This document shows, piece by piece, positions 184-40,539 of a stretch of DNA of 64,000 nucleotides. The position numbers were made by a program, and so were the translations under genes. A model generated the notes under the pieces. The model searched no databases. It had not been told where the DNA came from and worked only from the letters and a program-made list of their open reading frames with translations. How positions within the stretch are numbered: the stretch's first letter is position 1; every line of letters starts with the position of its first letter. The stretch spans positions 11,461-75,460 of the forward strand of contig DXGZ01000027.1 in assembly GCA_019113645.1 (NCBI GenBank). The letters run 5' to 3'. Origin of the DNA: Candidatus Mediterraneibacter vanvlietii (GTDB lineage: Bacteria; Bacillota; Clostridia; Lachnospirales; Lachnospiraceae).

Positions 184-1386
184 TTATAACACTTCTTCAG
201 CGATTTGTCTGCCAAGAGATTCTAATTCTTCTCTCTGGGCGTCCTTTACGGAAGACTTGATCGTTACTGCGCCTTCCATCAGCTTCATGTTTTTCATCTC
301 GCCGATCTTCGCGATGATCAGTTTGGTCGACTGAGGCGCCCAAGAGCCGTTTCCGAGAACAGCGACAGTGCGGTTCTGAAGAGCCAGCGCTTTCATATCT
401 TCCAGATAGTTGTCCATCAGCGGATAAATGCTGTTGTTGTATGTGGGCGCTGCAAGGACGATGTGGCTGTATTTGAAGCTGTCAGCGATCAGCTCGGATA
501 CGTGGGTTTTGGAAATGTTGTGCATCCGGATATCCTTTACGCCAGCCTCTGCAAGAACAGAAGCGAGGTATTCCGCCATGTTCTCTGTATTTCCGTACAT
601 GGAAGCGTAAGCGATCATGACGCCTTTTGTCTCCGGCTCGTATTTGCTCCATGTGTCATATTTTCCGATGATGTAGTCGAGATCTGTCCTCCAGATCGGT
701 CCGTGAAGCGGGCAGATGATGCTGATGTCAAGACCAGCGGCTTTTTTCAGGACGTTCTGCACCTGCATTCCGTATTTGCCGACAATGTTTGTATAATAGC
801 GGCGCGCCTCGTCCAGCCAGTCGCGGTCAAAGTCTACTTCATCATTGAAAATGTTTCCGTTCAGAGCCTTGAAGGTTCCGAAAGCGTCTGCCGAGAAGAG
901 AACCTTATCCGTCTCATCGTAAGTCATCATGGCTTCCGGCCAGTGAACCATGGGCGCCATGACAAAGTGCAGTGTATGCTTTCCGGAAGAGAAAGTATCT
1001 CCCTCTTTTACAACGATCTTCTTCCCTTCCAGATCAAAACCGAAGAACTGGTCGATCATGGGGAAAGTCTTCGCGTTGCCGATGATCTGTACATCCGGAT
1101 AGCGCAGGACGAGTTCTTCGATCATGGCACAGTGATCCGGTTCCATATGGTTGACAACAAGGTAGTCAAGGCTGCGTCCGTCAAGAACTGCCTGGACATT
1201 CTCAAGGAACTGGCGCCCGATTGCATAATCCGCCGCATCGAACAGAACCGTCTTCTCATCCATCAGAAGATAGGAGTTGTAGGATACTCCGTCTTTGAGC
1301 GGGAAGATGTTCTCAAACAGTTCGATTCTGCGGTCGCTGCCTCCGACCCAGTACAGATCTTCCGTTACTTTTCTGAAACAGTGCAT
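184..1386 (-). CDS. fprA: FprA-family A-type flavoprotein (flavodiiron protein: metallo-beta-lactamase fold plus flavodoxin domain)
   Basis: 400-aa ORF. N-terminal motif VVNHMEPDH (H-x-E-x-D-H di-iron site) and C-terminal flavodoxin-like VMIAYASMYGNTE. RBS aaggagg lies upstream of the ATG. Confidence 0.85.
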   Translation of the reverse strand: MHCFRKVTEDLYWVGGSDRRIELFENIFPLKDGVSYNSYLLMDEKTVLFDAADYAIGRQFLENVQAVLDGRSLDYLVVNHMEPDHCAMIEELVLRYPDVQIIGNAKTFPMIDQFFGFDLEGKKIVVKEGDTFSSGKHTLHFVMAPMVHWPEAMMTYDETDKVLFSADAFGTFKALNGNIFNDEVDFDRDWLDEARRYYTNIVGKYGMQVQNVLKKAAGLDISIICPLHGPIWRTDLDYIIGKYDTWSKYEPETKGVMIAYASMYGNTENMAEYLASVLAEAGVKDIRMHNISKTHVSELIADSFKYSHIVLAAPTYNNSIYPLMDNYLEDMKALALQNRTVAVLGNGSWAPQSTKLIIAKIGEMKNMKLMEGAVTIKSSVKDAQREELESLGRQIAEEVL

Positions 1387-1510
1387 TGATGATTCCTCCT
1401 TATATTGCGATCATGTAAATGTGAATGAACCTTTAAATATTCAACGACTCTATTCTATCATAAAAGATGGAATTCGCAAGATAAGTATTCATTTTTGTAC
1501 AGGGATTTCC

Positions 1511-2577
1511 GCTATTTTGTTCACTACCTTCATTGACTGAACGTACGAAAACAGAGAGGTTTTTTAAGACGTATTCTGCAGGGAGTGAGGATGTGGGCGA
1601 GGCTCCGCTCCGGGGAATAAGGGCAACTAAGAAGTTCCGGGCACGGACTAAATACAAGGACAGACGGTGAGCAACTCGCTTCGCTCAGACAATCTCACCG
1701 CCTGTCCTGACGTCCGCACACGGAACTCCAAGTTGCGCTAATTCCCCTTCGAAGTCACCCCGCCCACATCCTCACTCTCTGCAGAAAGGTACTTGCAATA
1801 GAGTTCTGTTTTCTGCTCTATTCATATGGGAAGATAGTAACAATATAGCTGCAGTAACAAAGGCGCGGCCAGAAGATTTTACAAATGGTGATACCTTCAA
1901 GCCGCGCCGTTTCGCGGTTTTCCGAGTTTGTTTACAGAATAATCAGAGGCAAAAACAACAAAAGCAGAAGTGCGTGAAAAGCCGGAAGGTATTGTTAATA
2001 GTCAGGGCGGCAGCAAAGTTATGCTGCCGCCGGCGCTCATTATACTCCACAAAAACGAGGAATCAAGGTCGGGTAGTATTTCCTTCGGAAATCTCCACCC
2101 TTCCCCTGACTCCTCATTTTTGTTCTGAGACGCTTTCAATAATGATCCGGGAATAAATACACGTTGCCCATGCAAAACGGCGCGGCTTGAAGACCTTATT
2201 ATTTGTAAAACCTTCCGGCCGCGCCTTTGGTTTTCTTCAGCCTGTTTATTCATTAACTTCCCCTCTGAAGCGACCAGAAAACAGCCCCATTTCAAAATAC
2301 TTTCTGCGGGGAGGGGGATTGTGGGCGGCTGACTTCGGATGGGGATTAGTGAAACTTGGAGTGCCGGGGAGGGATGTTGGGGCAGACGGTGAGATTGTTT
2401 GAGCGAATGCGAGTTGCTCACCGTCTGTCTCTGCTTTTAGTCCGTCCCCGGAACTCCTTAGTTTCCCTTATCCCCTGAAGCGGAAGTCGAACACAGTCCC
2501 CCTCCCCGCAGAATACGTCTTGTAAAGCCACTCTGTTTTCGTCTGATCTGAATCCGGCAGTTGATGAACTAAATAGC
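1511..2577. repeat. ~1.07-kb non-coding nested palindrome, copy 1 of a family also present at 39521-40409
   Basis: Hairpin A is at 1576-1784. Hairpin A' at 2304-2511 is the reverse complement of A by eye. Inner hairpins are at 1862-1908 and 2179-2225, and the central hairpin is at 2006-2031. Terminal inverted repeats are gctattttgttc (1511) and gaactaaatagc (2566-2577). No ORF is shared with copy 2. Confidence 0.85.
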
Positions 2578-2593
2578 TGGGGCTATTTTTATT

Positions 2594-2926
2594 TCAGCCG
2601 CAGTGACACTGGAATGTTGCGCACTCTGTGCCGCCTGCCTCTGTGGCATTTCCGCCCTCTACGCTGATTTTCCCAGCATGGCATGAACAGTTTTCGTTAT
2701 ACATACATTTTGTTGCCTTACAGTCTACGCTGGAACGATCCGAGGCCTGTCCCGCAGACATGGACATGGAATTGGAATATCCTCCCTCTTTCCGCTCCTG
2801 GAAACTGTCGCAGCAGGTCTCCTGGGGATTCTTTGCATTATCCCCGCCCACCTGGATCTTGTCCAGGTCACAGAGATACTGCTGATTGTGTACGCATGTC
2901 TGAACTGTACATTTTAATTCTGGCAT
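2594..2926 (-). CDS. DUF1540 domain-containing protein (two Cys-rich DUF1540 repeats)
   Basis: MPELKCTVQTCVHNQQYLC... and ...VDCKATKCMYNENCSCHAGKI match the DUF1540 Cys pattern. I chose the internal ATG at 2926 because aaggagg lies 7 nt upstream. The ORF track extends to 2983. Confidence 0.75.
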   Translation of the reverse strand: MPELKCTVQTCVHNQQYLCDLDKIQVGGDNAKNPQETCCDSFQERKEGGYSNSMSMSAGQASDRSSVDCKATKCMYNENCSCHAGKISVEGGNATEAGGTECATFQCHCG

Positions 2927-2990
2927 AATGATACCTCCTTCTTTTTGCTGATTCGTATTCATTATGCCCGGTATCCGCAGCAATTATTCG

Positions 2991-3710
2991 CTATTTTCCT
3001 TTCACCCACACATAAACCACCCCGAAAAATTCTCTCGCCAGATAGTTGATCTGAAACACAGGATTGGAATCCGCCGGAATCATATAAAGTTTCCGGTAGC
3101 CTTCCTGCCGGGCGATCACGGATGAACGGTAAATATGGAAATCATTCGTCACAATTCCCACCCTGTCCTGCTCTGCATCCGCAAACTTCCTGCTGAATCT
3201 GAGATTCTCCCGTGTGGATGTAGAACGGTCTTCGCGCCGGATCTGCTCTTCCGGAACGCCATTCTCAATCAGATATTCCGCCATGGCGTCCGCTTCCGTG
3301 ACCGCTTCTCCCGGACCCTGACCGCCGGAGACAATCACTTTCACGCCGGGATGTTTTTTCTGATATTCCAGCGCACGGTCCAGCCTCCTTCTCAGAGAGT
3401 TCGTTATGTGCGTTCCTCGCACCTGCGCCCCGAGCACGATCAGCCAGTCAAGCTCCTCATCACATTTTGCGAACATCGCCCGGATGATCCTGCTCTCTAC
3501 CAGAAGAATAGCTGCCCAGCAGAACAGGCAGAGCCATTTCAAAACCGAATATACAGATGCAGAAAACGGCGCACATCCGAAAACAAGATGTACGCCGCCT
3601 GTGATCACCCAGAATACTGCAAACGTTGATCTCAGCCTGCGCGAATAAAAGACAAGCACGAGATAGTACAGAATACACAGAATACCAGCGATCAGAAAAT
3701 AATATCTCAT
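2991..3710 (-). CDS. YdcF/ElyC/SanA (DUF218) family membrane protein
   Basis: 239 aa with N-terminal TM helices followed by a DUF218-like core (VSGGQGPGEAVTEADAMAEYL...STSTRENL). Confidence 0.75.
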   Translation of the reverse strand: MRYYFLIAGILCILYYLVLVFYSRRLRSTFAVFWVITGGVHLVFGCAPFSASVYSVLKWLCLFCWAAILLVESRIIRAMFAKCDEELDWLIVLGAQVRGTHITNSLRRRLDRALEYQKKHPGVKVIVSGGQGPGEAVTEADAMAEYLIENGVPEEQIRREDRSTSTRENLRFSRKFADAEQDRVGIVTNDFHIYRSSVIARQEGYRKLYMIPADSNPVFQINYLAREFFGVVYVWVKGK

Positions 3711-16235: not shown

Positions 16236-16525
16236 AGTTTCCATTGAAACAAAAAAACTCCGCCTCTGACAAGAGACGAAGTTTATCCGCGGTTCCACTC
16301 TAATTAAAAGAATTGTTTCTTTCACTCAAACTGCCTGTAACGCCGGCAAAACGTATTCCGCTACTTTCAGATGTATTGCACGGTTCGATATGCATCACCT
16401 GGTTCGCGGAATCAGCTCACGGAGGCACTTCGCAGAACGTCGGCACGGGGAGGCTTTCAGCCGGTGGCGTCCCCTCTCTGAGAGCTTCGTGATCTGTTAC
16501 TCTTTCCGTTCATCGCCTTTCTGAA
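16236..16525 (-). promoter_or_regulatory. T-box leader (Cys specifier UGC) controlling cysE-cysS
   Basis: All elements read on the minus strand: an AGAGAG box, a distal-loop-like ggcugaaa, cguucUGCgaag in the specifier position (plus 16432-16434), the T-box sequence agaGUGGaACCGCGg (plus 16286-16300), and then the terminator cuucgucucuugucagaggcggag plus U7. Confidence 0.7.
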
Positions 16526-39520: not shown

Positions 39521-40409
39521 AGCTATTTAGTTAATCAGGTTCGCTGACTTTTGGAGACGATATTTTCGAAAACAGGGAAGCATTCTAAAACGTATTCTGC
39601 AGAGGCTGAGGGTATGTTCAGGGCTCCGCTCCAGGGTCTAAGTGAATCTAAGAAGTTCCGGGCATGGACTAAATGCAAGGACAGCCGGCGAGCAACTCGC
39701 TTTGCTCAAACAATCTCGCCGTCTGCCCTAACGTCCATGTCCGGAACTTCAAGATTCACTAAGTCCCTTTCGAAGTCACCCTGCCCACACCCTCAACCTC
39801 AGCAGAAAGTTTCTTGAAATGGGGGCTGTTTTCTGCTTTATCGGCTGGGAAAGTCATCGAATAATCAACTGAGAAAAACAGAGGCGCGGCAGGAAAGCCT
39901 TACAATGTGTAAGTCCTTCAAGCCGCGCTGTATTGCGGTTTTCTAAGTCTATTTATAGAATGATCAGAGGGAAAAATGACAAAGGCGGAAGTGTACTGGA
40001 AATCAGAAGGTGTTGTTAATAATTAAGCCGGCAGCAAAACTATGCTGCCGGCCGCACTTTTGTTTTCTTCAGCCTGTTAGGCAGTAATTACCGATCTGGA
40101 TGGAACAGAAAACAGACCCTATTGCAAAAACTTTTCTGCCGGGAGGGAGACTGTGGGCGGCTGACTTCGGAGGGGGATTAGGCAAACTTGGAGTTCCGGG
40201 GAGGGACGTTGAGGCAGGCGGTGAGATTGTCTGAGCGTAGCGAGTTGCTCACCGTCTGTCTCTGCTTTTAGTCCGTCCCCGGAACTCCTTAGTTTCCCTT
40301 ATCCCCCGGAGCGGAAGCCGCCCACAATCCCCCTCCCGGCAGAATACGTCTTGTAAATCCACTCTGTTTTCGTCCGATTTGAAACCGGTAATTATTGAAC
40401 TAAATAGCT
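39521..40409. repeat. ~0.89-kb non-coding nested palindrome, copy 2 of the family at 1511-2577
   Basis: Alignable by eye to copy 1 end to end. Hairpin A is at 39597-39805 and hairpin A' at 40136-40342. The inner hairpin is at 39881-39928 and the central hairpin at 40027-40052. TIRs are agctatttagtt and aactaaatagct. It lacks the right-hand inner hairpin present in copy 1. Confidence 0.85.
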
Positions 40410-40539
40410 CCCCCCTTGACAAGGGTGCTATAGTATAGGTGTAACAGGAAACAAACACTTAACAACACCTGCTTTTAAGTACAAAGTGAATGGCTGCTAA
40501 GCGTAATTTCAATGATTCAGTGATTGGAGGAAAAGATAA

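Follow-up and report, generated by a model that had tools for sequence, protein, structure and literature searches.

A large interspersed hairpin repeat, apparently undescribed, in Candidatus Mediterraneibacter vanvlietii and other gut-associated bacteria

Background

Repetitive extragenic palindromic (REP) elements are hairpins of 21-65 nt with a GTAG or GTGG tetranucleotide 0-2 nt 5' of the foot; the descriptions come mostly from Proteobacteria and cover many distinct sequence families (PMC6006769). Here we describe a far larger palindrome, found at positions 1511-2577 of a 64,000-nt stretch of the genome of Candidatus Mediterraneibacter vanvlietii (contig DXGZ01000027.1, positions 11,461 to 75,460; this whole stretch is called the window) and again at 39522-40408. 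On balance, we take both to be head-to-head dimers of a ~340-nt unit from a multi-copy, non-coding, non-autonomous family of mobile repeats. It is apparently an undescribed interspersed palindromic repeat, and its closest analogy is a tenfold enlarged REP/REPIN (a doublet of REPs) or a miniature inverted-repeat transposable element (MITE).

The likeness to REPs and to their composite forms, bacterial interspersed mosaic elements (BIMEs) and REPINs, covers many traits. All are extragenic imperfect palindromes present in tens to hundreds of copies, single or as inverted doublets, the doublets are made of two sequence types (called v1 and v2 here, Y and Z there) with a short linker motif, they sit at gene 3' ends and between convergent genes without target duplication, they are hot spots for recombination and for the entry of insertion sequences (IS), and the enzyme would be encoded elsewhere. 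Unlike REPs, the units described here measure 290-470 nt, positions -1 to -4 are W W C A and not GTAG/GTGG, no REP-associated tyrosine transposase (RAYT) was found in the loci, and conservation across genomes labelled as several phyla is seen in the loops but not in the termini, which are lineage-specific. With MITEs (Correia, ERIC, RUP, BOX, bcr1) the repeat has in common that it is non-coding and dispersed, lies between genes, has terminal inverted repeats, forms long single-strand hairpins and causes assembly breaks. It differs from them in being 2-8 times larger, in the absence of a target-site duplication and of a parent IS with matching ends in the loci searched, and in a pairing kept by compensatory change over deep divergence, which is not expected of MITEs derived from IS ends. 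The family thus fails both the REP definition (size, GTAG guide; PMC6006769) and the MITE definition (target duplication and, as far as the loci searched show, parent IS).

Other systems are comparable in part. The ends of IS200/IS605 and of palindrome-associated transposable elements (PATEs) are also hairpins that fold in a strand-specific way, with no target duplication and no conserved sequence past the end, and IS200 copies are present in the same genomes as the repeat. However, those hairpins are 20-25 nt long, both on one strand and in direct orientation, whereas the repeat units are far longer and mutually inverted, and the specific target tetranucleotide of IS200/IS605 has no equivalent at the repeat, only A/T at -3 and -4. 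The attC sites of integrons are 57-141 nt long, with a RYYYAAC/GTTRRRY core and a non-conserved apical part, and form same-orientation arrays beside the integrase. They too are imperfect palindromes in which structure and not stem sequence is conserved, one strand is the folded form and flanking DNA is exchanged. The repeat differs in size, in arrangement and in its conserved apical loop, and its junction is at the CA/GCTAT boundary, not inside a GTT triplet. Viroids and Obelisks (300-450-nt rods with conserved internal and terminal loops) and the inverted terminal repeats of parvoviruses (palindromes built from palindromes) offer a formal likeness only, since the repeat is multi-copy chromosomal DNA with no match in 2.9 million viral contigs and no sign of an RNA or linear replicon. 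Resemblances to tRNA-like structures, K-turns, T-loops, the CS-6 of ssoA and the GTTC/CTTG of IS91 are weak. The literature, searched also with the loop sequence itself, gave no description of the family, although ISfinder and subscription literature may hold one.

Architecture of the two elements

The stretch 1511-2577 is a head-to-head dimer of a rod-like, non-coding hairpin unit of ~340 nt. Its arms (1545-1915 and 2172-2542) are 77.6% identical in inverted orientation, and the nested arm pairs I1-I4 given by the inverted-repeat search are 76-87% complementary. The hierarchy of inverted repeats seen in the initial annotation is therefore borne out by this search, by alignment and by folding, including the proposal that the right-hand hairpin (A') is the reverse complement of the left-hand one (A). 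Hairpin A itself, placed at 1576-1784, is real but had been drawn too short: it runs over 1511-1851 to the terminal motif, as a single imperfect palindrome whose ends GCTATTTTGTT and AACAATATAGC pair together in the fold. Compared with dinucleotide shuffles, the fold of 1511-1935 has a z-score of -12.4 on the plus strand and -13.6 on the minus strand, and none of the 100 shuffles was equally stable. On the inner side of each unit there is a GC-rich hairpin, B or B', with a 256-nt centre between them; both hairpins are where the initial annotation had put them, as is the small hairpin visible in the centre (GGCGGCAGCA-aagtta-TGCTGCCGCC). The terminal inverted repeats, first given as 12 nt, measure 13 nt (1511-1523 and 2565-2577, pair I15; 92% complementary). 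Just outside them the bases are CC at 1509-1510 and TG at 2578-2579, the norm of the family being CA...TG. The sequence beyond the right end (2578-2592, GGGGCTATTTTTATTT) holds a partial terminal motif in the opposite orientation (AAAATAGC-CCCA-GCTATTT), which may be a relic end.

The second, diverged copy that had been announced elsewhere in the window is the element at 39522-40408, between a phenylacetate-CoA ligase-like gene and the gene for ribosomal protein L25. It is 76-86% identical to the first and has the equivalent of 2038-2211 deleted. Searches with nhmmer and with the loop pattern gave four units, arranged as two inverted pairs, and no further ones turned up across the whole 64 kb with a covariance model built on the apical domain. 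The four units are 85% identical column by column, their outer ends point outward in both elements, and their apical loops are identical in an orientation-specific manner, so that each unit has a polarity. The fold of the 1.07-kb object at three scales is explained by the dimer arrangement of independent hairpin units. The large palindrome proposed as the element does exist, but this dimer is not the unit of function; the repeated entity is the ~340-nt hairpin. BLAST matches to the centre segment were limited to the window and three loci of other strains (L010, L012 and L014; retrieved loci carry the letter L), with partial ones in the second copy and in L128-L134.

Conserved pairing, loops and strand

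The alignment used for covariation had 45 non-redundant units of two subfamilies about 65% alike. RNAalifold predicted 68 pairs, and 58 of them show compensatory double changes. Paired cells reach 94%, versus 71% in column shuffles and 45-50% when the partners are slid, and the covariation score is 0.625, versus 0.23 in shuffles and at most 0.14 in the slid controls, much of this signal being one deep split inherited by many sequences. Compensatory changes have kept ~170 bp of stem paired, and in other lineages the same rod is rebuilt on unrelated stem sequences. What stays constant is the 24-nt apical loop, found on unrelated stems and termini in Lacrimispora, Marseille-P3244, 'Mucispirillum' and Gastranaerophilales, together with non-complementary internal loops: GCTCCG(C/T)TCC opposite (T/C)C(G/A)AAGTC(A/G)C, (C/T)TAAAT.CAA opposite TAAC, and ACGTATTCTG opposite CAGAAAG. 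Loops that are kept while stems turn over are the opposite of what a decaying inverted repeat would give, which argues that a folded single strand is recognised.

One strand is clearly favoured. All 45 units fold better as the reverse complement of the strand carrying the loop motif, as do 38 of 39 units from other lineages, with a mean advantage of 10-26 kcal/mol. Mismatches on the motif strand are mainly A.C (304, vs 174 G.U) and pyrimidine-pyrimidine, those on the other strand G.U and purine-purine. Read 5' to 3', the favoured strand starts at the inner end and finishes at the outer tip, and therefore in an inverted pair there is one strong hairpin on each DNA strand, towards the 3' side. 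The loop of the favoured strand is GAUUGUYUGAGC-N3-5-GCGAGUUGC and contains a small GC...GC stem, longer where the variable part allows.

Distribution and types of unit

The initial annotation had called the element a member of a dispersed family, and hundreds of related units were indeed found in other genomes. For the census, the loop pattern GCAACTCGC-N3-5-GCTCARACAATC was run over reference genomes in 8-kb blocks (596 Gb), in which about 1.6 chance matches are expected by our estimate. At least 98 blocks matched: at least 31 in one Mediterraneibacter metagenome-assembled genome (MAG), at least 14 in a Lacrimispora isolate, at least 12 in a Clostridiales MAG, at least 4 in Clostridium sp. 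Marseille-P3244 and at least ~17 in three AT-rich MAGs labelled Mucispirillum (13 in one of them). Among the matches listed, MAGs labelled Gastranaerophilales and Desulfobacula have a single one each. A match in a Bordetella-labelled MAG has no hairpin and looks like chance. Copy number can run to dozens in a single genome. The family is found mostly in gut-associated bacteria, and identical loop sequences occur in genomes labelled as several phyla (Bacillota, Deferribacterota, Melainabacteria, Desulfobacterota). It is known from chromosomes only; plasmid, phage and viral collections (the latter with the 2.9 million contigs) gave no match.

The unit is seen alone, in inverted pairs, in ~755-bp heterodimers and in minis with internal deletions. 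The standard Mediterraneibacter element consists of a v2 unit, a ~90-nt linker with hairpin B and an inverted v1 unit, ~755 bp in total; solos turn up occasionally, as do minis reduced to model positions 1-82 and 244-339. In 28 loci a v1 unit is followed on its inner side by a B-like hairpin. Lacrimispora has a single palindrome of ~290 nt as its unit, with ends TTGAGTTTCCGC..., Marseille-P3244 a single one of ~470 nt with ends AAATCTGAGTTTG..., and the Mucispirillum-labelled MAGs an AT-rich one of ~450 nt with ends CTGCTTCACCCCCATTTTTTT. Unit length thus ranges from 290 to 470 nt, and the different ends indicate that the termini are lineage-specific. Three loci of the Mucispirillum-labelled MAG (L036, L059 and L077) have the same ~65-nt insertion inside one arm, and L077 a further one of ~170 nt; a second small element is thus nested in the repeat. 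In the Gastranaerophilales contig, two adjacent open reading frames (ORFs; L090 5122-6696, minus strand) begin with the same 30 residues (MRVFSFRAVLTLAHSVQPFGLHIRATEIRW); one of them is similar to phage head-morphogenesis proteins, which suggests another repeat read as protein, or a prophage context.

Ends and gene context

A logo of 54 outer ends shows a conserved block that starts abruptly at CA|GCTATWWAG and takes in the two bases outside the unit, normally CA...TG, the terminal inverted repeats being CAGCTATWWAG... and ...CTWWATAGCTG. Beyond the block these ends show only a preference for A/T at -3 and -4 and nothing further out. The outer CA is paired to the TG just past the inner end. 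In the flanks of 23 elements there is no direct repeat and hence no target-site duplication. An apparent 10-nt extension (TAATAGTTCA) at some ends is not general. In several copies the terminal 8-14 nt are duplicated in tandem, for example GCTATAAA GCTATAAAGTTCAC; such duplications are found at L033 5722-5745, in the flanks of L032, L097 and L053, and at 39522-39545 of the window.

Elements are intergenic, with a preference for the stop codon of a gene that points towards them, and the commonest class of neighbours (same, opposite) corresponds to a position between convergent genes. Taking as criterion a same-strand open frame of at least 100 codons that ends between -22 and +27 nt, 33 of 74 outer ends (45%) abut a stop codon, which in 9 of the 33 lies inside the terminal motif. 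The four copies of Marseille-P3244 all begin at the TAA of a co-oriented gene. In the window only the end on the DUF1540 side follows this rule, and the other three outer ends face gene starts. Between the second element and the promoter region of the L25 gene there is a run of C (40409-40416) with 6, 7 or 8 residues depending on the strain; it is present at L010 5868-5876 and absent in L012 (5875), and may be a slippage-prone tract beside the extended -10 (TGCTATAGT).

Presence, absence and rearrangement between strains

Loci of other strains were retrieved by exact-protein look-ups with fprA, DUF1540 and L25, and most of the short-read contigs obtained end in or at the edge of the element. 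Another strain has the whole 1068-bp element (93.5% identity, identical ends) inverted at the L25 locus, and in long-read contigs from the fprA side the same left unit and B are joined to a more diverged v2 unit, giving a 766-bp element. On the L25 side the junction is at the same nucleotide within the species, yet three unit types abut there in different strains. The outer parts of the units are mosaic, with the outer 45 nt in common and the rest different. Species whose L25 is 90-91% identical have a spacer of 194-245 nt beside a metallophosphatase gene and no element upstream of L25, and 0.8-1.0 kb of element occupy the same Metallophos/L25 spacer in the species with 92% L25 and in the window species.

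The 37 kb that separate the two window elements (2578-39521, from DUF1540 to the phenylacetate-CoA ligase) form one element-bounded contig in other samples. Elsewhere this block has the genes for serine hydroxymethyltransferase (SHMT) and PolC as neighbours on one side, and fprA is instead joined to an ArsC-like gene. These altered neighbours indicate that the window strain differs by a rearrangement with both breakpoints at elements. A sister species at 93% carries one diverged unit in the interval from SHMT to the ligase gene. Directly downstream of L25, a sister species has a DarT-Macro (DarTG-like) pair (L144 3732-5998; L145 2315-4035), in the place of which the window species carries other genes, and one strain only has an IS256-type transposase (Transposase_mut) downstream of a GntR gene (L138 4713-5960).

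Coding capacity, RNA families and associated enzymes

The absence of a credible gene, claimed from the beginning, was confirmed. The longest ORF in the element has 139 aa (GTG start, 2002-2421, minus strand), falls in the region deleted from the second copy, where it is destroyed, and gave no Pfam match, nor did four others in the region; ORFs internal to the units were rejected as genes because they are short or GTG-started, unconserved and without Pfam match. The element is not a named RNA either: no family reached the gathering threshold within 1511-2577 in a scan with Rfam 15, and in the full window only a T-box leader and six tRNAs did, all of them outside the element. Scans at permissive E-values gave only hairpins of the plant or animal microRNA-precursor type (at most 47 bits, versus thresholds of 35 to 208), and a scan of 12 other loci nothing but one tRNA; in all, the gathering and permissive scans took in 13 loci besides the window, with only generic hairpin noise as a result. 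As anticipated, it is neither a terminator, with 0 sites found in 1300-3000 versus 2.0 expected, nor a CRISPR, the symmetry being only inverted and without a periodic family of direct repeats. In most genomes hairpin B has no T run after it. The promoter scan of the same region, which covers one element, found no promoter-like site at the units, and TATATT in the inner end has no matching -35 by eye.

As for an enzyme, no recurrent transposase or recombinase appeared when 1160 neighbouring ORFs were clustered all-against-all and screened for motifs, and Pfam searches of 147 neighbours gave ordinary housekeeping families only, with no transposase enriched, in agreement with the initial statement that none is carried. 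A parent IS with the same ends was not found in the about 0.9 Mb of loci searched. The only Y1_Tnp protein found (142 aa, E = 9e-40) lies inside one element, L091, and is part of a complete IS200. We considered it as a RAYT-style gene flanked by units and rejected this, since the same IS is found in L093 with a different flank and no copy of the repeat, indicating an independent insertion into the linker. This IS200 (L091 1204-1880; L093 5415-5676) sits within the inner terminal motif of a v2 unit and has its own, unrelated ends; copies of the repeat are thus not limited to the ends of a transposase-bearing IS. The left-end hairpin of the L091 IS200, CCCCAGC-TAT-GCTGGGG, has the string CAGCTAT in common with the foot of the repeat; resident IS200 hairpins have in common with the unit foot only the CAGC/GCTG stem.

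Coordinates of features in the window

Table 1. Units of the hairpin repeat, their parts and other features of the window. Positions are those of the window
Feature	Position	Strand	Basis and remarks
Unit c1L (v1 type)	1511-1851	+	nhmmer match 1511-1849; outer end towards fprA
c1L, strands		loop motif +, better-folding -	model match 1629-1736, - strand, 100 bits
Apical loop of c1L, GCAACTCGC-TTC-GCTCAGACAATC, invariant	1671-1694	+	exact pattern match, 0 expected by chance
Hairpin B, GC-rich, GGCGCGGC...GCCGCGCC	1859-1911		inverted repeat I8; 84% complementary to B'
Centre segment	1916-2171		includes central hairpin 2006-2031; specific to elements of this species
Hairpin B', inverted copy of B	2176-2228		inverted repeats I3, I13
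Unit c1R (v1 type), inverted	2240-2577	-	nhmmer match 2577-2242; loop 2393-2417, - strand
c1R, strands		better-folding +	model match 2351-2459, + strand; outer end 17 nt past DUF1540 stop codon
Unit c2L, second element	39522-39865	+	nhmmer; loop 39692-39715; model match 39650-39757, - strand; outer end points at phenylacetate-CoA ligase-like gene
B hairpin (about 39881-39930) and shortened centre, second element	39881-40058		copy alignment, BLAST, sequence; central hairpin 40027-40052; B' equivalent absent
Unit c2R, second element	40072-40408	-	nhmmer; loop 40225-40248, - strand; model match 40183-40290, + strand; outer end 131 nt upstream of L25 gene
fprA, flavodiiron protein (left neighbour)	184-1386	-	Lactamase_B/ODP/Flavodoxin domains
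DUF1540 gene (right neighbour)	2594-2926	-	PF07561
T-box leader	16269-16522	-	113.9 bits
Six tRNA genes	10609, 19168, 20350, 20438, 59913, 60032

Nature of the repeat

The absence of target duplication and of promoters, the hairpin ends and the strand-specific folding point to single-stranded DNA handled by an unlinked enzyme, of HUH/Y1 type or otherwise structure-specific. There are strong hints that the element acts as a folded single strand; the conserved loops would then be where a conserved trans-acting factor makes contact, and the termini, which are lineage-specific, the putative sites of cleavage or joining. The likeliest mechanism would be 'peel-and-paste' of single-stranded DNA, or structure-specific recombination, by an unlinked enzyme, the candidates being a HUH/Y1 transposase of RAYT/IS200 type or a comparable hairpin-recognising recombinase. 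Paired units would make the element strand-symmetric, and side effects could include recombination hot spots, breaks in assemblies and, at the 3' ends of transcripts from neighbouring genes, large hairpins. As part of this reading, the family is probably non-autonomous, with no conserved ORF, no recurrent neighbour gene and no transposase among the 147 neighbours. More tentatively, it might represent a previously unrecognised class of selfish or domesticated element, a DNA-encoded, viroid-sized rod (290-470 nt) with constant loops and with stems and termini that turn over, recognised as a folded single strand by a conserved partner, spreading in a way of its own and favouring stop codons.

Several points weigh against a mobile repeat of this kind. 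No mobilising enzyme was identified in the loci searched, so that the mechanism is what we infer, and the unit hairpins are 5-20 times longer than any known hairpin used by a Y1 enzyme and lack a GTAG-type guide tetranucleotide at their foot (PMC6006769). Being antisense to the gene at the outer end, the better-folding strand would usually be on the leading-strand template, not on the lagging-strand template used by IS200/IS605. Different termini with the same loops across lineages need a two-part recognition model. The comparison of empty and filled L25 spacers is old and unclean, with 15 extra bases on one side, and the comparisons with sister species, in which empty, single-unit and paired states were seen, gave no exact pair before and after insertion. 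Where whole units have been replaced at a fixed junction, the cause could be gene conversion and not transposition.

The covariation and the conserved non-complementary internal loops are also what structured RNAs show, and the strand asymmetry comes from G.U and purine-purine mismatches that one strand has. The unit might then be primarily a functional RNA, either a cis element in transcript 3' ends (stabiliser, read-through barrier or insulator of convergent genes) or a protein-bound RNA, its multiplication and pairing being secondary. In a pair, read-through from either gene would first transcribe the near unit on its weaker strand and next the far unit on the strand that folds strongly, making a symmetric two-way barrier. 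Placement right after stop codons and between convergent genes fits this proposal, and so do the effects on translation and mRNA decay reported for REP elements at most 15 nt from stop codons, in work cited in PMC6006769. Nevertheless, the one scanned element has no promoter-like or terminator-like site at its units, the flanks of solo copies have no common promoter, and in most solo copies the better-folding strand is antisense to the abutting gene and hence absent from its mRNA. Minis that keep only the termini persist, and no Rfam family matches. We regard a primary RNA role as the main rival, possible but less likely; such a role and a mobile repeat are not mutually exclusive.

The strain comparisons raise another possibility, that the units are recombination sites at which a structure-specific recombinase, integron attC-like or Xer-like, exchanges, inverts or moves the DNA between elements, the 37-kb segment being a movable block. 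Flanks switch exactly at element ends, three unit types join the L25 promoter at one and the same nucleotide, the 37-kb segment has elements at both ends and other neighbours in other strains, and the terminal 8-14 nt are sometimes duplicated in tandem. Specificity for a folded strand is a property of attC sites as well. We nonetheless consider this explanation unlikely: no recombinase gene is associated with the elements in the loci examined, there are no same-orientation cassette arrays, the units are 3-8 times longer than attC without a GTTRRRY core at the junction, and mosaic units fit homologous recombination or gene conversion between copies. Locus L013, in which an element end is followed by 3.7 kb of genes (HSP20, DUF6198, MatE) and then by another element, would suit arms that are the long terminal inverted repeats of a larger transposon or island with its cargo lost in the window. 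This contig is a short-read assembly through repeats, though, no cargo gene recurs, and the units are single in Marseille-P3244 and Lacrimispora and form tight ~755-bp pairs at most loci, all of which make a lost cargo very improbable.

Conclusions

If the reading as a mobile hairpin repeat is true, a large structured repeat without a name in current annotation is present, in dozens of copies, in common gut Clostridia (Mediterraneibacter, Lacrimispora and relatives) and in bacteria labelled as other phyla. It would break short-read assemblies, mark the breakpoints of strain-level rearrangements, and be placed on the stop codons and beside the promoters of genes with housekeeping roles (L25, SHMT, flavodiiron protein). 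A census of the family can be taken directly with the loop pattern and the covariance model. With loops invariant on co-varying 170-bp stems, a conserved binding partner seems likely, and it would give a handle on an undescribed form of hairpin-based mobility or regulation.

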